Shown: positions 2,777-39,917 of the stretch, piece after piece
Numbering within the stretch: the first letter of the stretch is position 1
How the letters are laid out: every line of letters starts with the position of its first letter
Origin: a virus
Reading direction: 5' to 3' (one strand)
DNA: 40,914 bases
Virus record (IMG/VR): IMGVR_UViG_3300045988_066297
Notes under the pieces: model-generated
The model's input: only the letters and a program-made list of their open reading frames with translations
Told to the model about the DNA's origin: nothing
The model's database searches: none
Made by a program: the position numbers and the translations under genes

Positions 2777-2814
2777 AATGTATATTATCTTCAAAGATAA
2801 TAAAACCGATCTAT
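2777..2814 (-). promoter_or_regulatory. Late promoter candidate 4 (degenerate upstream element ATAGATCGGT + 22 nt + TACATT)
   Basis: Minus strand reads ATAGATCGGT (2814-2805), a 22-nt spacer, then TACATT (2782-2777). The architecture matches sites at 6914-6951, 18455-18492 and 26781-26818. The element differs from the other three by one base. Confidence 0.45.
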
Positions 2815-3023
2815 TTATGTCCGATCATGTTCATGAACTGCTGTGCCATGCTCTTCAGCTGGTTAAACTGCTGCTGTGACATCTGGCCGTTCTGCAACAT
2901 ATTCATTACAATCTGCTTTGGATTTCCATTGAAGCTGTTCTTGAACTGGTTGAACTGAGACATCATGTTTGAAAAATCACTCATCGGCGTGTTACCTGTA
3001 TTTCGATCAAACAGTGGATTCAT
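2811..3023 (-). CDS. Small Q/N/M-rich hypothetical protein
   Basis: 70-aa ORF on the coding strand, overlapping the upstream gene end. Composition is strongly biased (Q, N, M, F). Confidence 0.45.
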   Translation of the reverse strand: MNPLFDRNTGNTPMSDFSNMMSQFNQFKNSFNGNPKQIVMNMLQNGQMSQQQFNQLKSMAQQFMNMIGHK

Positions 3024-4954: not shown

Positions 4955-5959
4955 TCAGGATGCCTTGTAAGAGCAAGCGGTCTCGATACGTACCATGTAG
5001 TCCTCAACCAGACGCTCTGCAGTCTTGGTCGCCTTCCAACCGATGGTCGATCTCTGATCGAGCGGATCAGCCGTACCGGCAGAACCCTTCTGCTTCACGA
5101 TGAGCTGCAGGCCGCCACCCTCGATGTTGGTCGTACCATACGCATTTGCGGCGATAATCAGGGTGGAATATACATCAAACTTCGTGCCGGAACCGCCACC
5201 GACCTTCTCGAAGATCTTCGCCTCGGTGGTCTCTACGAAACGCACACCGGCGATCTTACCGATCTCGTTGTTGTACATCTTGTCCGGGGAGGTGTACTTC
5301 TGCCACTCAACCCAGTTCGGGTCGGACATCAGGTCGTAAGAAACATCCGGGTGAATGATACCAACATAGCTGCCATCGATGGTACGTGCATTCTGACGCT
5401 TCAGCGTTCTCACGGCTGCACGAATCGCCTTGACGGTCAGTGTATCGGTCTCGAGGAGTGCCGCTCTACCGGCTCTCTCTGCCTCGTGGTACTGAACATT
5501 GGTACCGCCGTTCAGAATCTCACGGGTGACCGTATCCAGGCTTCGACCAGCCTGAGAGCCGATAAGCTGCGTCGCCTCAGTCTTTACGTTGTCGATCGAT
5601 GTCAGATCGAGCAGGTCGGTGATGATAACATAACCGCCGTACTGCTTCACCTTCGCAGTAAGTGCAGAGGTATCAAGCGCCTGGCCATCCGGTGTTACAC
5701 CCTCGACGAGTGCGTCCTGGATCTTCGCCAGCGGCATGAACTGTCTGAACTCGATCTCCTTACCGTTACCGGAAGGAATGTTTCTCTTCTGACCGAACTG
5801 ATCATGCACGAGCTCTGCTTCTGCAAGGTCAATGAGGTAATCAGAGTAATAGGTCTTGATCTCCGGTGCCAGGTTATTACCGGACGACGCGGAGGTCGTT
5901 GCGTTGATAACGTTATCAAACGCATGAAGGTTTAACTTATAAATCTTTGCTGTATGCAT
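4955..5959 (-). CDS. Major capsid protein (N4-gp56-like, HK97 fold) with N-terminal Prp cleavage motif
   Basis: 334 aa directly after the scaffold gene. NLAPEIKTYYSDYLIDLAEAELVHDQFGQKRNIPSGNGKEIEFRQF matches the N4-gp56 MCP family signature as I recall it. The N-terminus MHTAKIYKLNLHAF-D resembles the L27/80alpha Prp site. Confidence 0.85.
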   Translation of the reverse strand: MHTAKIYKLNLHAFDNVINATTSASSGNNLAPEIKTYYSDYLIDLAEAELVHDQFGQKRNIPSGNGKEIEFRQFMPLAKIQDALVEGVTPDGQALDTSALTAKVKQYGGYVIITDLLDLTSIDNVKTEATQLIGSQAGRSLDTVTREILNGGTNVQYHEAERAGRAALLETDTLTVKAIRAAVRTLKRQNARTIDGSYVGIIHPDVSYDLMSDPNWVEWQKYTSPDKMYNNEIGKIAGVRFVETTEAKIFEKVGGGSGTKFDVYSTLIIAANAYGTTNIEGGGLQLIVKQKGSAGTADPLDQRSTIGWKATKTAERLVEDYMVRIETACSYKAS

Positions 5960-6913: not shown

Positions 6914-6951
6914 AATGTAAATGCTTTGCAAGCGAAAACAAACCGACCTAT
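6914..6951 (-). promoter_or_regulatory. Late promoter candidate 3 (ATAGGTCGGT + 22 nt + TACATT), upstream of scaffold/MCP
   Basis: Minus strand reads ATAGGTCGGT (6951-6942), 22 nt, then TACATT (6919-6914). It lies directly after the terminator at 6952-6981. Confidence 0.55.
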
Positions 6952-6981
6952 GAAAAAGGAGCCCCCGTCGCCGGGAACTCC
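6952..6981 (-). terminator. Rho-independent terminator after the giant gene
   Basis: Minus-strand RNA GGAGUUCCCG-GCGA-CGGGGGCUCC forms a 10-bp stem (two G.U pairs) with a GNRA-type loop, followed by UUUUUC. Confidence 0.7.
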
Positions 6982-7001
6982 TCATTTCATCGATATTCGC
7001 T

Positions 7002-18454: not shown

Positions 18455-18492
18455 ATTATGAGTGAAGGCGTAAAAAAACGTCACCGACCTAT
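18455..18492 (-). promoter_or_regulatory. Late promoter candidate 2 (ATAGGTCGGT + 22 nt + CATAAT), upstream of the giant gene
   Basis: Minus strand reads ATAGGTCGGT (18492-18483), 22 nt, then CATAAT (18460-18455). The flanks CCAT...TTTTTACG are shared with the site at 26781-26818. Confidence 0.55.
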
Positions 18493-18541
18493 AAAAATGG
18501 ACCGCAGTGTTACCACCACGGCCCCAAAAAGGAGGAAACGA

Positions 18542-20935: not shown

Positions 20936-22466
20936 TGATCTCACTTCCCAGCTCTATAGTGTTTGCCATCGCGACGATCTTACACGGGCCGGTGCCCTCG
21001 ATGCGGATGCGATACTTGCTGCATCGTCTCGGGATGATCGGGATCGTGTAAGTCTTATCCATCGCACTGCGGATGAATCCCTTATGCTCCCACATAGGGC
21101 CGTCGTCGAACTTCGCAAAGAACTTCACCTCGCTGCCTACCGGCATCACGAAATTGATAAGAACCTTTGAAACGTACTTCTGTTCCATCGCAGATCCTCG
21201 CAGATCTCCCGACTCGAGAAACCACCTGATCGGTTCCGTATCGTTGCCGTAAATATCGCGAAGATTATTCTCTGCATCAACATAATGAAGCATGCCTTCC
21301 GAATACTGAACGAACTTGAAGGCTGTATCGTCCTCAACATCCCATACACTGGTCAGCGGATTATACACGAGCAGCGTCTGTGCGCCTCCCAGCTTGCATG
21401 ACAGATAGAGCTTGCCGTCGTACTGTGCTGCTGCCGCGTCCGTGATCTCCTGCGTGATGTTCGTCGAGATCTTCTCCGGCACGCCGCCCAGGTATCTGTA
21501 CACGCCATCCCTGGAAACATAATACAGAGTTTCGTTGATGGTTACGAGCGACCTATCACAGCCAGCGCGCACACCAGGCAGCGTCTTTTCGAGCAGGGAG
21601 AAGTTCGACGGCTTGTCACCTCTAAGCACGTGGAAGGTTGACTCCTTGAAGAATATAAGGTATGTGCCGTACTTGCTGATGCCGGTGAAGTCTCCGTCTG
21701 ATCCGACCGTCGCCGCCCATGCGTTGTTTGCTTCCTTCTCGTAGTTGTACCAGTTCTTCGGGTCTCCGATCTTGCAGCAGTAGACCTCGTGATTCTTGCT
21801 GGAGCATCCCCATAAGCGGTTGTCTCGCTCCGTGATAAAGTCCATGTCCGGTACTTTCCGCTCGAATGTAGCCGTGCTGGTGAACTGATCGGTCAGAGAA
21901 CCGGTCACGATGATGTAATCGGTGCCGCCGTCGGTAATCACTTTCGTGCCGTTGTATTCTGAATTGGACGCGCCGGATATGGTCACGTTGTCGCCGGTCT
22001 TGAATGCGTTCCCGATGCCCGCAAGCGTGATCTTCGTGAATACGGAGCCTTTCGACAGCGGCGCAAACACTGCGCTGCCGCTTACCTTCGCTGTCATGTG
22101 GTCCACGGTGCCGGTGAATGTATTGAAGATGATGTGGTCGGGGAATACGCAGATATACGCACCGATGCCAACGAGCTTCTTGTCTCCGTCCGTCACGGTG
22201 AATACTTCCTTGTCCTTGTAGTAGGCTTTCGTCCCGTCGATGTAGAACAGACCGTTCTTGTAGAAGATGCCTTTCGGATTCTCGAAGGTCTTCTCTACGG
22301 TGCCTCGTGCTGGTCTCGTGCTGATCGCAGGGTAATGTCGATCGCACATATTCTTCATCGCAGCCCACTCTCCCCGGCTCGTGATCATGTTCTGATTCAC
22401 TCCCAGGAAGCGGTCCGTGATGGAGCTCGCCCGATTATCTGATGTTGTGATCTGTGGTAGTCGCAT
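20904..22466 (-). CDS. Large structural protein (tail/nozzle candidate, repeated beta-strand-like Y/F motifs)
   Basis: 520-aa ORF in the structural block. Recurrent motifs (LFYIDGTKAYY, TLYYVSRDGVYRY, KLYLSCK, MLHYVD) suggest a propeller-like repeat. No enzyme motif seen. Confidence 0.35.
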   Translation of the reverse strand: MRLPQITTSDNRASSITDRFLGVNQNMITSRGEWAAMKNMCDRHYPAISTRPARGTVEKTFENPKGIFYKNGLFYIDGTKAYYKDKEVFTVTDGDKKLVGIGAYICVFPDHIIFNTFTGTVDHMTAKVSGSAVFAPLSKGSVFTKITLAGIGNAFKTGDNVTISGASNSEYNGTKVITDGGTDYIIVTGSLTDQFTSTATFERKVPDMDFITERDNRLWGCSSKNHEVYCCKIGDPKNWYNYEKEANNAWAATVGSDGDFTGISKYGTYLIFFKESTFHVLRGDKPSNFSLLEKTLPGVRAGCDRSLVTINETLYYVSRDGVYRYLGGVPEKISTNITQEITDAAAAQYDGKLYLSCKLGGAQTLLVYNPLTSVWDVEDDTAFKFVQYSEGMLHYVDAENNLRDIYGNDTEPIRWFLESGDLRGSAMEQKYVSKVLINFVMPVGSEVKFFAKFDDGPMWEHKGFIRSAMDKTYTIPIIPRRCSKYRIRIEGTGPCKIVAMANTIELGSEINGYIHTGYRR

Positions 22467-22902
22467 GTGGCCTCCTTAATGGCATGTGCGTCCGTCTGTA
22501 CCAACTCGAGTACTGGCTCCACTCGTTCTCAAATGCCGCTGCTTCCATGTTGTAGCGATTGACTTCTCCGTTGTAGAAGTCAATCTTCGCAAACACATAG
22601 GTCGTATAGCAGGCGTTGAACTGATCCGGTATCAGCAGCTCACGTTCTGCATCCTCGTCATAGACATAGGACTTGAATACTGGAGGCTCAGCCGGTGGCT
22701 GCTCGTCCGGCTTGTAGTTATCCACGCCGGGAAGGACCGTGACCGGCTCTTTCGGAATCGGTGGCTTCGGCGGCTCGGCACGAGAAATCACCTGATCCAT
22801 CGCCATGAACTCGACCTCGTTCACCCACTGCGTGAGCATGTCCTTCGTGTACTCACTCGGTCTGAAGCTCGTAATATTCGCGATTAGTTCAGATAGTGTC
22901 AT
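22435..22902 (-). CDS. Head-tail adaptor / head completion candidate
   Basis: 155-aa ORF between Prp and the structural genes, with a proline-rich central linker. The function is assigned from position only. Confidence 0.25.
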   Translation of the reverse strand: MTLSELIANITSFRPSEYTKDMLTQWVNEVEFMAMDQVISRAEPPKPPIPKEPVTVLPGVDNYKPDEQPPAEPPVFKSYVYDEDAERELLIPDQFNACYTTYVFAKIDFYNGEVNRYNMEAAAFENEWSQYSSWYRRTHMPLRRPHATTTDHNIR

Positions 22903-23209
22903 ATCTCACCTCTACATTCTCCGGGTAGTTTCCCTCCAGGCTCTCTGCTCCGATCTGAAACATCCGTACTGCAGTGTCGATCTCCGGCGTCGGGCCATCC
23001 GGTCGCTCGATCATGATCATGAAGTTGCCTGGATCATCCTGATACATCGGGAGCGCCTCTGGATGATCATGGAGCATATAGTTAATCAGCGTATAGGCCA
23101 GCATGGATACCGACGCGCACACGATGTCGTGTCCCGGGTCGTAGTCTGCATGGCCGATCAGCGTGATCATGGTATTACGATGTTGGTTTAGTATTCGAAT
23201 GTGCGTCAT
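22889..23209 (-). CDS. prp: Prp-family cysteine protease (ribosomal-processing cysteine protease homolog)
   Basis: ITLIGHADYDPGHDIVCASVSMLAYTLINYM... and the C-terminal YPENVEVRY align with the Prp/DUF464 pattern (GHAD..G.DIVCA.VS ... Y.ENI.L.Y) known from S. aureus Prp. It follows the portal gene. Confidence 0.8.
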   Translation of the reverse strand: MTHIRILNQHRNTMITLIGHADYDPGHDIVCASVSMLAYTLINYMLHDHPEALPMYQDDPGNFMIMIERPDGPTPEIDTAVRMFQIGAESLEGNYPENVEVRYDTI

Positions 23210-25001
23210 GTACGTTTACCCTCGTTTCCGGTTCTGCCTGTGCAAGCCCCATACCCTGCATGGCCTGAAGCACACGTGTATCTCCGCCCTGCGCCAGTGC
23301 CTGTGCTGACAGCTGTGCTACCTGCTGCAGCTGCTGGATCTGCTGAGCCATCATGCTGTTCTGCTGGATGCCCTGCCGTACCTTCTCCTTACCCTCAAAG
23401 TCCATCATGTCGATGCACTGAAGGGCCTGCTCTGCCATCTGAGGATTGAAGAAGCCCAGGTTATAGAACTGAAGTGCCAGCTCGTTCTGCGATACCGTAG
23501 TGAACGGGTTCTGCTTCTGTGCTCGTGGATCTACATCGAAGATCGGCTCTTCCGTCTTGAAGTCCTGTCCTGCGATGGACTGCGTGCCGCCAAGCAGGGC
23601 TGCATTGTTCATCGAAACATAGTCCGGCTCTCCACCATCACCTGTGATTCGGAAAGTCCGCTCCGTGTCGTAGAACTGCCGGATCAGCTCAATAGCCATC
23701 TTGCAGATGTCCGTATAGGTCCGATAGCTCCCCTTGATGATGTCTCGCGAGGTCTTGTTGCCGGCCTCCTGCAGCGCCGTGATCGCGCTGGCTGCCGTTA
23801 CGCCGCTCGTGCTGCCGCCCTGGTTGAAATCTCGGTTGGAGCTCGTCTCCTTTAGCTCGTTCACCTTGTCCTGCAGCACATAGAGATACGTGGAGGAAAG
23901 CTGTGGAGTCTCGAATGAGCGCAGGTTATCATCATTCGGTGAGCCAGCCACATGGACGATACGTTTATGAATATCTCTGAACTCCTCCTCGTTGATGCCG
24001 CAGTTGTCCTTTGCGAAATACCGGCGCGTTGCACCCTCCTCCGCATTGATGATAATGGCAGCGCCAAGTCTGTCGATGTACTCCTGCGCGTCCTTTTCAA
24101 CATCGATGATACCGAAGCCGGCTGGCGTACCCTTCTCCGGGTAAAGCACGTCCATCACGAACGGGTACTGGCCGTGATCGTAGATGCCGTTCTCGTATGC
24201 AGGATCGTTTTCAGAAGCAAACAGGACTGTATCTCCGCAGTATTTCACTAAATGGACCTGCGTGCCGTTCTCGACCTTCACCTTGTAGTACCAGTCAACG
24301 ACGATCGACTTCTCCGTCGTATCTACTGTGTCATCGTAGTGGTACTGCTTCCGGTCAATGGTGGTGCCAGACAGCTTTCCGACGAGCTCCGGGTACTGGT
24401 GCTCGAGTGAGTCGTTATCCTGTAGAGACAGCACGAACAGGTTCTTCGACTCCTGGATGTCCTGGATGCCCGGCTCCCAGTAAAACGACAACATATCGAC
24501 CGGACGGATATCAATGTCTCCGGTGCCGTGTCGCATGTCCTGATTCCAAAGAACAGCATAAACGGATGTGCCGTGCTTCAGCTTGTCCCACCAGTTGTCC
24601 GAGTAAGTCTTTTCGAAGTTGCAGTTATCGAAGATCACTGGCAGCACGCTCGACAGCATGTGCGCGGTGTCCTCGTCGTTACGCTCTCGTGGCAGCACGA
24701 TCGGCGTCGGGAAGTTGTCCATCGCGTCTGCGTGCTTGTTGATGATCGAGTTGAAGAGCCAGGCGGATGTGCTCTGCTCCTGTCTCTCCATCGTGTCACG
24801 GTGAAAGTTCTTCCAGTGCTGCAGCTTCCACCAGTCCTCATTGTCAACGATGCGCCTGTCCAGCTCCTGTTTACCGGCGATGTACTTCTCCAGCGTCTGC
24901 TGCGCGGTCTGTACAGCCAGCGTGTCGATCGGGCCGGAGTTTTTCTCCGGCTCCGGTGACTGCTGCTGTGGTTGCACCTCTACATTATCAATCGTTACCA
25001 T
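23175..25001 (-). CDS. Portal protein (SPP1 gp6-like)
   Basis: 608 aa immediately downstream of TerL (start overlaps the TerL stop). It has the size, position and N-terminal DNEDWWKLQHW-type segment typical of gp6-like portals. Confidence 0.8.
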   Translation of the reverse strand: MVTIDNVEVQPQQQSPEPEKNSGPIDTLAVQTAQQTLEKYIAGKQELDRRIVDNEDWWKLQHWKNFHRDTMERQEQSTSAWLFNSIINKHADAMDNFPTPIVLPRERNDEDTAHMLSSVLPVIFDNCNFEKTYSDNWWDKLKHGTSVYAVLWNQDMRHGTGDIDIRPVDMLSFYWEPGIQDIQESKNLFVLSLQDNDSLEHQYPELVGKLSGTTIDRKQYHYDDTVDTTEKSIVVDWYYKVKVENGTQVHLVKYCGDTVLFASENDPAYENGIYDHGQYPFVMDVLYPEKGTPAGFGIIDVEKDAQEYIDRLGAAIIINAEEGATRRYFAKDNCGINEEEFRDIHKRIVHVAGSPNDDNLRSFETPQLSSTYLYVLQDKVNELKETSSNRDFNQGGSTSGVTAASAITALQEAGNKTSRDIIKGSYRTYTDICKMAIELIRQFYDTERTFRITGDGGEPDYVSMNNAALLGGTQSIAGQDFKTEEPIFDVDPRAQKQNPFTTVSQNELALQFYNLGFFNPQMAEQALQCIDMMDFEGKEKVRQGIQQNSMMAQQIQQLQQVAQLSAQALAQGGDTRVLQAMQGMGLAQAEPETRVNVHDAHSNTKPTS

Positions 25002-26395
25002 TAGTTATCTCTCCTTGCTGGCATGATCTCGAGCGGATCTTCCGGTGGAAGCGGGTCACGCTCGGTGAAATGTTTCATGTTCTGACGTGGGTTCAGCGGT
25101 CGTTCCTGGAATACGTACCGTGTCTCGTCGTAGATGTGATCCTCCATGTCTGTGTCGATGTCCTCGACGTGCTTATCGTCATAGATCAGTAATGGGATGG
25201 TGCGGATGAACTGCTTGCAGGACTTGAAGCAGTAAAACATCGGGATTCCCTCGCGGTCGAATGACAGCCGGTAATGGAACTGCATCAGACCAGCGATGCG
25301 CGTATGATCGCCCCTGCTGTTGTATACTCCTGCTCGTTCAAACATGTCCTCGATAGACTCTCCGGTGTCTGAGCCCCAGATTGCCGGATCTGCGATGCCG
25401 TAGACCCTCCGCCCCCGTATGTTCGGATCAGTGCGTTCGATCTCTTTAATTCGTTCCGCAATCTCCGGTACTGTGAGCTGCCGGCCTGTGTTCGGCTCTG
25501 ATGTGCAGCCATAGTCCTCTCTGATCCGATACAGGATGCCGTCATGATCGAGTGCAAACCACCCGACACTGTAAGGCTTGCTGTAGCCGTGGTCATAGCC
25601 TCTGTAGATCTTCCATGTGGGCGGTATCGTGAAGTCGTCAATCACGTGCGTCCACCGCCGGTCCTGGTAGTGTGCTGGATCATCGGTCCACTCGTTGAAT
25701 ACCTGGCCGATGAAGCTATCCCAGTCTCCCTCAAGCCATGCCTTCCGCTTCGCCTCTGGCAATGCTTCCAGCGCGCGCACATACTCCGGGTCTTTCTCCA
25801 TCAGGACGGCGTTGTCGTAGACCAGCGACTGAATGAAGCTGTAGTCCTCCGGATACTCATTCTCCGTGTACTGCCGTGTGATGAACAGCCGCTTGATATA
25901 TCCATGTCCCTTGCCTCCCGGGTTGCAGGTGTAGTAGGTCCGTCGTGGGAAGTCCGATGTACCTCTGACGCAGGCGTTGAGATCCTTGATCTGCTGCTCC
26001 GTGAGCTGCGTCGCCTCATCGATGTAGAGGATATCTACCTCAGTACCTTGGTACCGGTCAGTATCTGAATCCGTTGCACAGTAACCGAATAGAATCGTGC
26101 TGCCGTTTGGAAACGTCATGATCTTATCAGAGTTATTGTACTTTATCGGGCAGCCTGGCGCACCAACATGCAGCAACCGTATCAATGGTCGTATGTGGTT
26201 TGCCTTGAGCTCAGAATATGTCCGTCTGATAACCATCTGCTTGATGCCTTGATAACTGTTGGCCATGAGAATGAGCTTTGCACGTACCGCCCAGCTCTTT
26301 CCACCACCTCTGGCACCGCCAAAGGCCACATGTCGGTGATGATCTCTCAGAAACCTGTCCTGCTTCACATTCGGACTACCAATATCTACATTCAT
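25001..26395 (-). CDS. terL: Terminase large subunit
   Basis: Walker A FGGARGGGKSWA, Walker B-like ILYIDEATQL, and a C-terminal nuclease-type region (YGIADPAIW...D). 464 aa, overlapping TerS (ATGA). Confidence 0.9.
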   Translation of the reverse strand: MNVDIGSPNVKQDRFLRDHHRHVAFGGARGGGKSWAVRAKLILMANSYQGIKQMVIRRTYSELKANHIRPLIRLLHVGAPGCPIKYNNSDKIMTFPNGSTILFGYCATDSDTDRYQGTEVDILYIDEATQLTEQQIKDLNACVRGTSDFPRRTYYTCNPGGKGHGYIKRLFITRQYTENEYPEDYSFIQSLVYDNAVLMEKDPEYVRALEALPEAKRKAWLEGDWDSFIGQVFNEWTDDPAHYQDRRWTHVIDDFTIPPTWKIYRGYDHGYSKPYSVGWFALDHDGILYRIREDYGCTSEPNTGRQLTVPEIAERIKEIERTDPNIRGRRVYGIADPAIWGSDTGESIEDMFERAGVYNSRGDHTRIAGLMQFHYRLSFDREGIPMFYCFKSCKQFIRTIPLLIYDDKHVEDIDTDMEDHIYDETRYVFQERPLNPRQNMKHFTERDPLPPEDPLEIMPARRDN

Positions 26396-26709: not shown

Positions 26710-26780
26710 AGAACTCAGCCCCTTTCTGTGTGTTTAATAGTGTCACCTCTGCCGTGGTCTCTCCCATGAGTCATAATGAT

Positions 26781-26818
26781 ATTTTCGGGCATGTTTTCGT
26801 AAAAACAAACCGACCTAT
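26781..26818 (-). promoter_or_regulatory. Late promoter candidate 1 (ATAGGTCGGT + 22 nt + GAAAAT; TATCAT 5 nt further), upstream of terS
   Basis: Minus strand reads ATAGGTCGGT (26818-26809), 22 nt, then GAAAAT (26786-26781). It follows the early-operon terminator. Confidence 0.5.
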
Positions 26819-26830
26819 TTTATGGAATGT

Positions 26831-26867
26831 GGAAAACAAAAAGAGGGCTGCCAACTAGCAGCTCTCT
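26831..26867 (-). terminator. Rho-independent terminator ending the early operon
   Basis: Minus-strand RNA AGAGAGCUGC-UAGUUG-GCAGCCCUCU (9 bp with 1 mismatch), followed by UUUUGUUUU. It lies right after the stop at 26872. Confidence 0.7.
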
Positions 26868-26871
26868 TTTA

Positions 26872-27294
26872 TCACTTATTATTGACTGTCTCTTCGATAT
26901 GTTGACCTCTGAAATTGATCCGGAAAAGCTCGTGATTATCCAATAATACCGATATATCGACATCAAGTAGGCCAATCCTTTGACTGCAAATGTTCATGCG
27001 GCCTTCCTCCATAAGCTTTCGCGCAACTTCCGGCTCGTATCCCATGCTTCTCAGTGTGTCTTTGATTTTTTCGTCGAGCCAATATATACACTGATCGTAG
27101 CTAGATGGACTACCCCATAATGCTTCGAGTTCTTCACTCAATGGGAGTCTACAATCATTAAGATTGTATCGAGCAGGACGTAACATATTAAAGTTCCGAA
27201 GATATGCTCTATAGTCATCTCTCCACGAATGTATCCCAGATACATGAGCACAGTCATCAATGTCTGAATTCCGAGAACCGTTTCCATCGTTCAT
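26872..27294 (-). CDS. Hypothetical protein, last early gene (positional candidate for a late-gene activator)
   Basis: I prefer the ATG at 27294 because it has a GAGGAGG RBS (the ORF-track start is 27324). No recognisable motif. The regulator idea rests on position only. Confidence 0.4.
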   Translation of the reverse strand: MNDGNGSRNSDIDDCAHVSGIHSWRDDYRAYLRNFNMLRPARYNLNDCRLPLSEELEALWGSPSSYDQCIYWLDEKIKDTLRSMGYEPEVARKLMEEGRMNICSQRIGLLDVDISVLLDNHELFRINFRGQHIEETVNNK

Positions 27295-27355
27295 AGCTCC
27301 TCCTCTATAAAAATCTGTAATCAATCAAAGAATATTTGTTTTGCTTTATACCTTC

Positions 27356-28791: not shown

Positions 28792-29202
28792 TTATTCCAC
28801 CCTCTCAATCTTCGGGATCGGCTCATTGCCATACTGCATCGGTTCACTGGCTCGGACATCCCATTCTAGTTTTGTCGGAGCATCTAACCATTCCTGATGC
28901 CGTAGCACGTCATAAACGGTTTCCAGCTCCAGCACTGTGATAGATTTCATGGTGCTGGTATTCTGCCAGCAGCCGTGCATCACGCCATCGAGCACAGGTC
29001 TGATCGCCTCACGAGTTCTATAATAGTTTACAAATACCCGCTTGCCCTCATCGGTGCTTGTATTAAACTCGATATTATCCCCCATTGTTACAAGCCACTC
29101 GGTCAGATCATCCGCCTGTCCCATTCCGGTACGCATCATCAGGTTAACCGCACGAAGAACAGCGTTGAGCTGCACATCTGTTAATTCAATTCTGTACTTC
29201 AT
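28792..29202 (-). CDS. Hypothetical protein
   Basis: 136-aa ORF with an ATGA overlap to the upstream gene. No motif recognised. Confidence 0.5.
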   Translation of the reverse strand: MKYRIELTDVQLNAVLRAVNLMMRTGMGQADDLTEWLVTMGDNIEFNTSTDEGKRVFVNYYRTREAIRPVLDGVMHGCWQNTSTMKSITVLELETVYDVLRHQEWLDAPTKLEWDVRASEPMQYGNEPIPKIERVE

Positions 29203-29393
29203 TCTTCCACCACCTTGAAAGTCTCTTCAAAATCAGCCTTACCGATTTTTATGGTAATGTTCTTATAGTTGAGTAAGACCATGTTTCCATCTGCTTCCGC
29301 TTTCCACTTTTGCTGTGGATATACTCCAATGCTACAACAAGCCCCATCAGGGCACATGAACATTAATACGCTGCCTTTAGGTCTAACGATCAT
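29199..29393 (-). CDS. Hypothetical protein
   Basis: 64-aa ORF with an ATGA overlap to the upstream gene. No motif recognised. Confidence 0.45.
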   Translation of the reverse strand: MIVRPKGSVLMFMCPDGACCSIGVYPQQKWKAEADGNMVLLNYKNITIKIGKADFEETFKVVEE

Positions 29394-30025
29394 TCATCCT
29401 CCTTCTCCTTCATCCATTCTGCAATCGTGATTTGTCCCTTGATCGTGTCGTCCTGCGTCCACCAGCGGAATACGTCCTCGCCGGTTTCCCAATTGCAGAC
29501 CATTCCGCGCTCCTTCCGCTTCTTATTCATCCGGTCGAATGCACGAATGTAGTTTTCTTTGAACTTCGGATAGTCGCTGAATTCTTTCGCGATTACCTTC
29601 TTCGACGCCATCGGGCATCCGATACACCCAACGCGCGTATAACCTCTATCATAGAGTGGGTTGTACTTTATACCGTTCTCACGAATGAAATCCCAAATAT
29701 CAGTTGCTTTCCACTCGATAATCGTATTAACCATTAAGTCGGAATTTTTCTTCGCGGCCGTGATTAACTTACAATCCCATACCTCATCACGTGTCTGCGC
29801 TTCTTCGTATACTTCCGCTGAATGCTCATATGTAAAACCGCTGGACTTGAATTTCGTTTGGCCTCGAATCTCAAAGTCGTTTCTACTAGAACGTTGAATT
29901 GATTCCTCTCGCCTTACGCCAAGGGCTACAATTCTGTTTGGCGTTGATTGTTCCTTGAGGACTTGGCAACAATATCTTGCAATACGCGTCGGTGGAACAT
30001 TCTTATGCACAATCAGCTTCCACAT
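29390..30025 (-). pseudogene. PAPS reductase / CysH-like PP-loop protein, C-terminal fragment (after frameshift)
   Basis: MWKLIVHKNVPPTRIARYCCQVLKE...VGCIGCPMA is typical of phage PAPS-reductase-family proteins. It joins the N-terminal fragment if one G is removed from the G8 run (C8 on plus, 30035-30042). Confidence 0.75.
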
Positions 30026-30317
30026 ATTCGTCGGCCCCCCCCTTGTACGTCGGATAGAGAATGGTCGCCATGCCCCCTCGAGCTCGTTCAGCCGCAAAGA
30101 CTTCCCGAATGTGGTAGACCGTTTCCGGCGCGTCAACCGTCGTGTGCGAGTTGATAAGCTCGTACTTGATACCGCTCATCCGAGTGAGTGCCAGCAGTAC
30201 GTCCGAGTCCTTGCCACCGCTATAAGCGATAATCAATGGCTTGCCGTAATACTGTTCGGACATCTTCGCCGCGAGCTGCAGCTTCTTAATGGCGCGGTCA
30301 ATTAATTCATGTTTCAT
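30003..30317 (-). pseudogene. PAPS reductase / CysH-like PP-loop protein, N-terminal fragment (before frameshift)
   Basis: PP-loop PLIIAYSGGKDSDVLLAL. The frame ends 10 codons after the homopolymer. A G7 tract would give ...ILYPTYKGGPTNMWKLIVHK..., a continuous 308-aa protein. Confidence 0.75.
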
Positions 30318-37827: not shown

Positions 37828-38259
37828 ATGGATAAAAAGACTTTTTCCCAATATGAAAGCCAATCAGTAAACAGGATAAGAGAACTGATTGCGACTCGAT
37901 GTAATGGGAGCCAACAGGAGTTTGCAGACAGAACCCACATAAGCAAGGCGTCTATTTCGCAATACGTAAATGGGAGGAACACACCTTCCAATCTGACAGC
38001 TCAGAAGATCGCAGACGCCTTTATGGTAGACCCAGCGTGGGTGCAAGGTTTTGATGTTCCTATGAAAGAACAGACCTACTACACCAACCCTGAGACAGCT
38101 GCTAAAGCGCAGGAACTTTTCGACCGGCCAGGAATGCGAATTCTATTTGACGCAGCGCAAGACGCAAAGCCAGAAGACTTGCGAAAAGCAGCCGAGTATC
38201 TTGAGTTTCTAAAATGGGGCGGAAAACAAATTGAGTACGAAGCGCATAAGGAGATGTAA
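37828..38259 (+). CDS. CI-like repressor (XRE-family HTH)
   Basis: SQQEFADRTHISKASISQYVNGRNTPSNLTAQKIADAF is an XRE HTH. 143 aa, divergent from the cro-like gene. Confidence 0.8.
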   Translation: MDKKTFSQYESQSVNRIRELIATRCNGSQQEFADRTHISKASISQYVNGRNTPSNLTAQKIADAFMVDPAWVQGFDVPMKEQTYYTNPETAAKAQELFDRPGMRILFDAAQDAKPEDLRKAAEYLEFLKWGGKQIEYEAHKEM

Positions 38260-38645: not shown

Positions 38646-38735
38646 ATGGAACGCAGAGTAGCTTGCTACATCCGTGTGAGCACTCAGGAACAGGCCACGC
38701 ACGGATTTTCTGTAGGTGAAAGGAGGTGCGTATGA
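38646..38735 (+). pseudogene. Remnant of a serine recombinase N-terminus (29 codons)
   Basis: AAGGAGG RBS then ATG. MERRVACYIRVSTQEQATHGFSVGE matches the catalytic N-terminus of serine integrases (..VA.Y.RVST..Q...GFS...Q). The match breaks at the AGGAGG RBS of the tyrosine integrase. The stop TGA overlaps the int ATG (ATGA). Confidence 0.65.
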
Positions 38736-39787
38736 AACTACCAAATGGATATGGAAGCGTATCAAAAATGTCCGGTAAGCGTCGGCATCCATGGCGGGTA
38801 AGAAAAACTACTAAATGGGTTCTCGATCCTGTCACGGGAAAAGCTAAACAGCAGAGCATTGTCGTCGGATACTATGCAACCAAGGCCGAAGCGCTACAGG
38901 CATTATCTGAATACAATAAAGACCCATTCGATCTGAAGTTCAGTAGCAAGACTATGAAGGAAGTCTACGAAGAATGGTCTGAGCGCAAATTCACGGAGAT
39001 CTCTGATCAGAACATTAAGGGATATAAAGCTGCATGGAAGCTTTGTGAACCAATTCAAAATATGCGCTTCGTAGATATCCGCATCGATCATCTTCAGAAG
39101 CTCGCGGATGAATCCGGTAAAAACACTCCGACACTAAAAAAATTCAAAGTGATGCTGAAGGGCCTTTTTGATTATGCCGTAGTTCATGGAATCATCACAC
39201 AGGACCGGAACATCGTTTCATACCTGGACATTACTCATGCAGGAAATCCGAACGCACGAAGTCATACACCATTCACCACCGATCAGGTCGATCGGCTGTG
39301 GGAAGCTCACGAAAGCAACGAATATTACTCTATCATCTTAATGCTGATCTATACCGGGCTTCGTATCGGTGAGCTGCTGGATCTCGAGAAAAAGGACGTG
39401 CATCTCGATGAACGATGGTTCTTTGTGAAGGAATCGAAAACGGACGCCGGCATCCGATCGGTGCCAATCGCGCGCAAAGTGATGCCATTTTTCGAATACT
39501 GGTACGCAAAGAACGATTGTCCATACTTGATCAGCACACCTGATGCTCGACATTTTGAGTACCGGAACTATTTCGACTCGTATTGGAAACCACTGTTAAA
39601 GCACATCGGGATGGAATCCCATCGGCCTCACGACACCCGCCACACCTGCATATCCATGCTGACGGCAGCCAAAGTCGATGAACGTTTTATTCAGAAGATC
39701 GTCGGGCATAAAGGACAGAACGTGACCCAGCAGGTCTATACTCACCTCGAAATAGAGGAGCTGATTGCTGAAATCGACAAAATATAA
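38732..39787 (+). CDS. int: Tyrosine integrase
   Basis: LIYTGLRIGELLDLEKKDV (Arg), HDTRHTCISML (H-x-x-R), GHKGQNVTQQVYTHL (His and Tyr nucleophile). The ATG at 38732 is 5 nt after AGGAGG. Confidence 0.9.
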   Translation: MKLPNGYGSVSKMSGKRRHPWRVRKTTKWVLDPVTGKAKQQSIVVGYYATKAEALQALSEYNKDPFDLKFSSKTMKEVYEEWSERKFTEISDQNIKGYKAAWKLCEPIQNMRFVDIRIDHLQKLADESGKNTPTLKKFKVMLKGLFDYAVVHGIITQDRNIVSYLDITHAGNPNARSHTPFTTDQVDRLWEAHESNEYYSIILMLIYTGLRIGELLDLEKKDVHLDERWFFVKESKTDAGIRSVPIARKVMPFFEYWYAKNDCPYLISTPDARHFEYRNYFDSYWKPLLKHIGMESHRPHDTRHTCISMLTAAKVDERFIQKIVGHKGQNVTQQVYTHLEIEELIAEIDKI

Positions 39788-39823: not shown

Positions 39824-39877
39824 TGAAAAAATCGCCCGTTATCAGAAGAGATTTCAAAATTAATAAAATAAGAAAAG

Positions 39878-39917
39878 CCCTTGGAAATGCTGGATTTCCA
39901 AGGGTTCTGTTCTTTTT
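39878..39917. terminator. Bidirectional rho-independent terminator between int and the end of the late operon
   Basis: CCCTTGGAAAT-gctgg-ATTTCCAAGGG forms a perfect 11-bp stem. It is followed by TTCTGTTCTTTTT on plus and preceded by an A-rich run, which is T-rich on minus. Confidence 0.8.

Follow-up and report, generated by a model that had tools for sequence, protein, structure and literature searches.

The DNA considered here is a 40,914-nucleotide (nt) virus record, IMGVR_UViG_3300045988_066297, whose full length we call the window, and the feature under study is a short sequence element that stands before several of its late operons. The window is a temperate phage genome of ~41 kb in which the minus strand holds nearly all genes; among its products are a large terminase, a P22-type portal, a Prp protease, a major capsid protein, a CI-like repressor, a Cro-like protein and an integrase (Table 1). 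The decamer ATAGRTCGGT has four exact matches in this genome, all on the minus strand and all intergenic, against a mean expectation of 0.11 in dinucleotide shuffles, and four copies were reached in none of 100 such shuffles. An earlier note on this DNA had described four decamers 22 nt from -10-like hexamers, and the description is accurate: the hexamers are as reported, and the composite pattern TAGRTCGGT-N22-NANNNT finds the same four places with zero mismatches. Site 1 lies before the terS operon, site 2 before the gene for a 3805-amino-acid (aa) polyvalent protein (the giant gene), site 3 before the scaffold and major capsid genes, and site 4 before the operon at 1982-2704 and the genes after it.

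All four hexamers have the A at position 2 and the T at position 6 that characterize a sigma-A -10 element. They are not accompanied by a TTGACA-like -35 element at a distance of 16-18 nt; a consensus scan for that arrangement returned only site 2 (GTGACG-18-CATAAT). Sites 1-3 are directly preceded by a G+C-rich hairpin followed by TTTTT, the signature of an intrinsic terminator (z -3.7 to -4.0), as the earlier note had reported for three sites. Its ranking of the site 2 hairpin as the weaker one does not survive, the number of pairs and the folding energy (Table 1) being similar to those of the other two. No hairpin precedes site 4 (z 0.08), where the decamer overlaps the stop codon of gene 2811-3023; the same variant occurs in L022 (L numbers denote loci of relatives). 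The proposal that transcription restarts after each terminator fits the anatomy. The flanks that sites 1 and 2 were said to share (CCAT... and ...TTTTTACG) do not line up in register and are not conserved among relatives, and they therefore carry no weight.

Relatives were anchored on terminase or capsid genes. The close ones are contigs of gut and rumen origin in IMG/VR and prophage-sized contigs in metagenome-assembled genomes of Oscillospiraceae and other Clostridia, which points to a Gram-positive anaerobic host with Shine-Dalgarno sites and intrinsic terminators. Near-identical DNA is absent among GenBank phages, and the protein-level relatives there are unannotated gut contigs. Conservation in relatives, on which the earlier note had staked its reading, is found at equivalent intergenic places: the 9-mer TAGGTCGGT recurs before terS, before the giant gene, before the scaffold and capsid genes, and before the homologue of operon 1982-2704, and the terminators, spacers and leaders around it are of unrelated sequence. 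The site 1 element keeps its place in L001, L003, L004/L035 and L078 despite different terminators and spacers, the site 2 element is kept in L001, L002/L034 and L003, and the site 3 element in L022-L025 and L027-L030, the flanks in L025-L030 being unrelated. In L030 the homologue of operon 1982-2704 has been relocated, yet it again lies 3' of a terminator and TTAGGTCGGT-22-TAAACT. A strong hairpin and T run also precede most of the relatives' sites. The motif is real, non-random and conserved.

Alignment of 19 non-redundant TAG[GA]TCGGT sites gives a mean match to TATAAT of 3.89 out of 6 at an offset of 22 nt, versus 1.4-2.6 at all other offsets from 8 to 39, and both A2 and T6 are found at offset 22 in 14 of these sites. 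The two from L040 and L048 stand in other sequence context with no -10-like hexamer and look like chance matches. Position-wise information is confined to the 9-mer (W W T A G/T G/A T C G G T), a weakly T-rich stretch at ~ -29 to -27, and the -10; a position-wise count also shows A enriched 7 nt after the hexamer, at the predicted +1. Where the earlier note had described a weak -35, no hexamer is conserved between the element and the -10, and the information at -34 to -30 is at most 0.36 bit. If the hexamer occupies -12 to -7, the 9-mer lies at ~ -43 to -35 and abuts the place of sigma region 4. Tolerated variants are TAGATCGGT (site 4), TATGTCGGT (L033, L071 and L082), TAGATAGGT (the terS site of L002) and, with a 23-nt gap, TAGGGCGGT (L068-70). 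A literature search for the motif string returned unrelated primers only. The sites are best read as a promoter class with a sigma-A-type -10, no -35 and a specificity element in the position just given. The conservation, the fixed 22-nt spacing and the diverged flanks support, at the level of sequence, the earlier idea that the decamer is the site of a late activator.

Three further stretches touch on these sites. A doubtful fifth copy, ATAGGTCGCT-22-TATTAT, has one mismatch and lies inside a 520-aa gene; it is an exact TAGGTCGGT in L068-70 and is replaced by other codons in L035, L066 and L071, and because the codons differ in other lineages it is probably a coding coincidence and not an internal promoter. 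Within the Cro-like gene, AGAAGTCGGTGATTATTTTTACGC (37499-37508, minus strand) recalls site 2 in its core and its downstream flank (GTCGGTGA...TTTTTACGC), with two mismatches to the decamer. The conserved leader between site 1 and terS, ATGACTCATGGGAGAGACCACGG (26745-26772, minus strand), is what remains of the 5' end of a PhageMetallopep (PF18894) gene; L035 (9207-9620) and L045 (14750-15142) retain this gene whole, between their late promoter and terS. The leader was on this account rejected as a regulatory RNA. Tests of RNA-level explanations found no Rfam family and no tRNA in the window.

Table 1. Coordinates of promoter elements, candidate factors and landmark genes in the window (ORF, open reading frame).
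Feature	Positions	Strand	Remarks
Site 1 element ATAGGTCGGT	26809-26818	-	decamer would span about -44 to -35
Site 1 -10-like GAAAAT	26781-26786	-	22 nt after decamer; predicted start, A near 26774
Site 1 intrinsic terminator, hairpin and T run	26847-26862	-	closes early operon; -17.3 kcal/mol, z -3.8
Site 2 element ATAGGTCGGT	18483-18492	-	
Site 2 -10-like CATAAT	18455-18460	-	
Site 2 intrinsic terminator, hairpin of 11 pairs and T run	18499-18524	-	-19.9 kcal/mol, z -3.7
Site 3 element ATAGGTCGGT	6942-6951	-	
Site 3 -10-like TACATT	6914-6919	-	
Site 3 intrinsic terminator, hairpin of 12 pairs and T run	6956-6983	-	after giant gene; -22.8 kcal/mol, z -4.0
Site 4 element ATAGATCGGT	2805-2814	-	
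Site 4 -10-like TACATT	2777-2782	-	
Doubtful fifth site	21519-21556	-	
Candidate early promoter TTGACG-17-TATACT	37711-37739	-	canonical; beside Cro-like gene; would drive early operon with four-cysteine gene
Four-cysteine protein, candidate trans-acting factor, 83 aa	31937-32188	-	early gene; sequence MDKVGFKFESTTIKCPLYRNVVRTNKGQFQGVECAKEEHLGFDATHIIRLRNREELRDYLEIFCEDMYESCPIYQYYTREWRD
Winged-helix protein	32166-32399	-	HTH_39, Pfam E 6e-19
DUF6291 protein	32362-33081		replication module
HNH-like 100-aa zinc protein	33211-33513		
Large terminase	25001-26395		
P22-type portal	23175-25001		
Prp protease	22889-23209		
Giant polyvalent-protein gene, 3805 aa	7002-18419	-	AAA_34 and Helicase_C_4 (Strawberry-notch/Sbno type), ResIII, LPD38
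Major capsid protein	4955-5959		
Cro-like DUF739 protein	37445-37687	-	
CI-like repressor	37828-38259	+	
Integrase	38726-39787	+	

Because the early region has a canonical candidate promoter (Table 1) and no known regulator is present, late promoters without a -35 would need help, and because the element changes from lineage to lineage at a constant -10 type, the helping factor is likely encoded by the phage. The earlier note recognized no RinA, ArpU or sigma-like gene, and domain searches of the early ORFs concur: models from Pfam, PHROGs and NCBIfam for sigma factors, RinA, ArpU, DUF1492 and other Ltr proteins match none of them. The note had instead put forward, on position, the product of 26872-27324 (26872-27294 in its numbering). 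This candidate was rejected, as it is missing from L003, L035/L004 and L045/L046, which have the identical motif; its homologues occur only in L002/L034 and L078 (L063 and L081 being further loci of contigs L002/L034), and it matches nothing in Pfam or PHROGs. An ORF at 28792-29202 with a weak PHROG match to 'transcriptional regulator' (E 6e-4) was also ruled out, being absent from L035 and L045. A comparison of the window with L035 and L045 across their early regions leaves three common proteins: DUF6291, the HNH-like 100-aa protein, and an 83-aa protein with four conserved cysteines (the four-cysteine protein), whose gene had been hidden under a longer spurious ORF. The winged-helix gene overlaps the start of this gene and a conserved 82-aa ORF (31701-31949, minus strand) overlaps its end; both are small and easily overlooked, and a longer ORF across these small genes (31861-32256) looks spurious.

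At 50% identity the four-cysteine family forms ~65 clusters in a set of 1.84 billion representatives. Residues C15, P16, C34, G41, C64 and C71 are invariant and F42 and P72 nearly so, which places CP motifs at 15-16 and 71-72 and spaces the cysteines as C-x18-C-x29-C-x6-C. A count of residues shows a net excess of basic ones in the N-terminal half and of acidic ones in the C-terminal half, and some members carry tails rich in K/R. Profile searches of Pfam, PHROGs, NCBIfam and PDB sequences gave no match, all members being unannotated, and word-index homologue searches with the protein returned few proteins and no names. A first AlphaFold model from 11 sequences was unusable (predicted local distance difference test [pLDDT] score of 51). 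A second, built on a 20-sequence alignment, reached a pLDDT of 77.8 and a predicted template-modelling score of 0.67 and consists of three strands followed by two helices. Foldseek searches with this second model found nothing in the PDB, with no sigma-r4-like match, and a single match in BFVD, to an uncharacterised 70-aa gut-phage protein.

The distribution of the family follows that of the promoter element. In a profile scan of viral and metagenome contigs, the gene is present in every motif-bearing contig for which the early region is available. Homologues were found in the window and in L002, L004/5/L035, L045/46, L062-L071 and L078-L085, all of them motif carriers, and further profile matches that carry the motif include 031645, 000045, 3300021254_000074, 3300021400_000058, 3300021426_000314, 057092, 021287, 094392 and 3300037400_001124. 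The gene was not found in ~25 loci of more distant, motif-less relatives (up to 10 kb of early region), and the same loci have no element-plus-(-10) site, bar one chance match in a coding region. It is the last early gene in L064-66, L068-71, L073, L074, L077 and L082, where the order is four-cysteine gene, terminator, element, 22 nt, -10 and terS operon. Late activators of Firmicutes phages are classically encoded there, as the last early gene before terS (PMC3753634).

More divergent members of the family go with other, G-rich 9-mers at the same spacing. L075 and L076, whose proteins are 42% identical to that of the window, each have two copies of TGGGGTGGT-22-TACAAT/TAGCAT/TAAAAT, which precede terS and scaffold; L077 (36% identity) has TGGGGTGGG twice with a 22-nt spacing; and L089 (34% identity) has T(G/A)TGGTGGGGGATTTTA before terS and before scaffold, also with a 22-nt spacing. 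Further arrangements of this kind are TAAGTGGGT-22-CAGAAT in L073 and TTAATCGGT-22-CATAAT in L074. Within the protein, TAGGTCGGT lineages and GGTGG lineages show systematic differences in the segments that follow the first CP motif and LGFD, which may reflect phylogeny only. Covariation of protein and site was ruled out as the source of the alternation between TATGTCGGT and TAGGTCGGT, as nearly identical proteins occur with both (L082 versus L064).

Taking these observations together, we consider it probable that the decamer is a late-promoter specificity element and that it is read by the four-cysteine early protein. We infer from the genomes compared here that transcription starts at these sites, that a protein binds the motif and that the binding partner is the four-cysteine protein. 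Several findings weigh against this explanation. Overall the four-cysteine protein is not basic, and no DNA-binding fold can be recognised in it. In the window its gene lies 5 kb upstream of site 1 and terS and does not adjoin them, and L090 encodes a 40% identical protein and has no clear element. Since TATGTCGGT and TAGGTCGGT go with nearly identical proteins, the difference between these two elements is one of site degeneracy and not of covariation. The co-occurrence of gene and motif is also non-independent evidence, because all TAGGTCGGT phages are related (TerL 75-95% identical), and the HNH-like and DUF6291 genes co-occur across the TAGGTCGGT clade as well.

That last point leads to the first of the rival explanations, in which the activator is another early protein and the four-cysteine protein is otherwise employed; the candidates would be the HNH-like protein, DUF6291 and, within the closest clade, the winged-helix protein. 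Every TAGGTCGGT-clade phage whose early region is covered has the HNH-like and DUF6291 genes, HNH-like homologues extend to L072 and L075, and the winged-helix protein has a bona fide DNA-binding fold. Each of the three nevertheless departs from the distribution of the motif. HNH-like homologues occur in phages that have neither the motif nor the four-cysteine gene (L010, L011, L019, L021, L040, L054 and L057), DUF6291 is located in the replication module and is absent from L075, which keeps the promoter architecture, and the winged-helix protein is missing from L035, L045/46 and L068-71 despite the same motif. None of the three genes adjoins the late promoter, whereas the four-cysteine gene does so in many lineages, and we regard a different early activator as unlikely. 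We are slightly more doubtful that an alternative sigma factor, whether phage-encoded or supplied by the host (for example, a sporulation or stress sigma), recognises the element as its -35-type site. The element has in common with sigma elements that it is asymmetric, occurs singly and keeps a fixed distance from the -10, and the Clostridia, to which the hosts belong, have many alternative sigmas. The hexamers, however, are sigma-A-like (TAnAAT), no phage ORF scanned has a sigma-like domain, and the 22-nt gap exceeds any known sigma-70-family spacer by ~5 nt. The element moreover varies by phage lineage (TAGGTCGGT, TGGGGTGGT and TGTGGTGGG) at a constant -10 type, which argues for a determinant specified by the phage.

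Two explanations that dispense with activation altogether fare worse. The decamer might be a repressor operator that silences the late genes in the lysogen, or the loading site of a Q-like antiterminator; the phage is temperate and encodes a CI-like repressor, and the sites lie near terminators, save site 4, which has none. As an operator the decamer would be atypical, in that it is not palindromic, unlike the operators of CI and Cro, and it lies 5' of the -10 at a place where the -35 is missing, so that the promoter would be weak even when unrepressed. As for antitermination, the terminators are upstream of the promoters, leaving nothing to read through before the next unit. We consider both roles very improbable. 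It is harder still to credit that the decamer has no function and that its four copies remain from the duplication of a terminator-promoter cassette. TTGTTTT follows the decamer at both sites 1 and 3 and TACATT is common to sites 3 and 4, as such a history would leave them, but relatives keep the 9-mer and its spacing amid unrelated flanks, a pattern that neutral decay would not produce.

Recognition of the element by the four-cysteine protein would have its closest parallels in known late switches. Firmicutes phages use late activators of the Ltr superfamily (RinA, ArpU, LtrA/sigma70_r4, LtrB/DUF1492 and LtrC) that act on terS promoters (PMC3753634, PMC3152322). The phage described here is likewise a temperate Firmicutes phage with a small putative regulator from a CI-controlled early operon, whose gene is in many relatives the last early gene, immediately 5' of terS, though 5 kb from it in the window, and which would switch on packaging, morphogenesis and lysis. 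The candidate differs from Ltr proteins in having 83 aa versus ~130, four invariant cysteines, no net basic character and an unmatched predicted fold, and nothing of RinA, ArpU, sigma70_r4 or DUF1492 type, that is, ~130 aa and basic with a sigma region-4-like C-terminal domain, was recovered in its sequence. The targets differ as well: Ltr proteins use a repeat region at terS and a single late promoter, whereas here one asymmetric 9-10-mer is found at each of four promoters. P2 Ogr, P4 Delta and 186 B are zinc-finger activators of ~72-80 aa with four cysteines (C-x2-C-x22-C-x4-C in Ogr) that work with the host sigma-70 holoenzyme in Proteobacteria at late promoters having a -10 and a poor -35, and Ogr binds a dyad site, TGT-N12-ACA, centred near -55. 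The likeness consists in a very small four-cysteine phage protein and several late promoters with a -10 but a poor -35; the cysteines at 15, 34, 64 and 71, the non-dyad element at -43 to -35 and the Clostridia host set the present system apart, and the Ogr_Delta model of Pfam does not match the four-cysteine protein at E values up to 1.

Activators that bind beside or over the -35 position, such as class II CRP-type proteins and lambda cI at PRM, provide a precedent for the geometry, as does Spo0A at spoIIG, with 22 bp between a -35-like element and the -10. The promoters of the window resemble these in having a sigma-A-type -10, an element at about -40 that would abut sigma region 4, and a -35 spacing that is non-functional; the element itself does not match the 0A box (TGTCGAA), and it does not match the operators of CRP or cI either. 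A further comparison is with the WhiB-like (Wbl) proteins of Actinobacteria and their phages, which have ~80-100 aa, four invariant Fe-S-ligating cysteines in the pattern C-x(n)-C-x2-C-x5-C and in some cases basic C-terminal tails, and which act just 5' of the -35 through region 4 of sigma-A. The four-cysteine proteins resemble them in size, in the number of invariant cysteines and in the K/R-rich tails of several members, and differ in cysteine spacing and host phylum; the Whib model of Pfam gives no match. Nor do the sites look like promoters of a phage RNA polymerase of T7-like or N4-like type, the conservation being restricted to 9-10 nt and the -10 hexamer. The system would work like other phage late switches (Ltr/RinA and Ogr) and like -35-adjacent activators, and its candidate activator matches none of those families. 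The promoter system is in this sense a variant on known late-regulation logic, and the family of its candidate activator is uncharacterised.

Several neighbouring features of the genome are recorded here in their own right. The giant gene, having its own late promoter and its own terminator, would form a single-gene transcription unit. Its product was rejected as a virion RNA polymerase, as it contains an Sbno-type helicase and an LPD38 domain instead. Two overlapping ORFs on the minus strand, 30003-30317 and 29390-30136, match consecutive parts of phrog_424 and together make up a split PAPS-reductase-like gene, which is intact in L035 (319 aa); the split across 29390-30317 is a frameshift, a pseudogene or a sequencing error. 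A stretch of ~530 bp at 31180-31712 is poor in ORFs and dense in degenerate repeats at a 10-11 bp phase (ATGCCATTGC and TGCTTTGCGTTGC), shows indel variation between close relatives and lies near the DUF6291 organizer-like gene. It is probably an iteron-type replication origin. Just 3' of the integrase gene and near opposite-strand ORFs at the right end, a 13-pair hairpin with T runs on both strands (39876-39906) looks like a bidirectional terminator.

A model for the early-to-late transition can be drawn from the arrangement of promoters and terminators. After induction, the early operon would be read from the promoter near 37739 to the terminator that precedes site 1 (26847-26862). A phage early protein, likeliest the four-cysteine protein, would accumulate, recognise the element, and recruit or position the host RNA polymerase holoenzyme, thereby switching on four late units: a block from terS to a 475-aa gene, the giant gene, a scaffold, capsid and lysis block, and a distal block. 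The terminators before the first three units would insulate them from early read-through and from each other, an arrangement from which the distal block is exempt.

Uncultivated phages of gut Clostridia have essentially no mapped promoters or known regulators. The promoter grammar proposed here (element, 22 nt and -10) can be recognised in the sequence, partitions the late region into four units, and could be used to annotate transcription units in prophages of Oscillospiraceae and other Clostridia. We suggest, tentatively, that the four-cysteine proteins may be a new family of late activators in Clostridia phages, unrelated to RinA/ArpU/Ltr and to Ogr, with each lineage using its own G-rich 9-mer. 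The paired CP motifs and the strictly anaerobic hosts invite the thought of a metal or Fe-S centre in the protein, which is pure speculation. If the proposed role is true, an uncharacterised 83-aa family would be the early-to-late switch of these phages and would add an activator family to those of Firmicutes phages. Its lineage-specific pairs of protein and DNA site would then offer material for the study of how specificity evolves, as well as small orthogonal promoter-activator parts for use in anaerobes.

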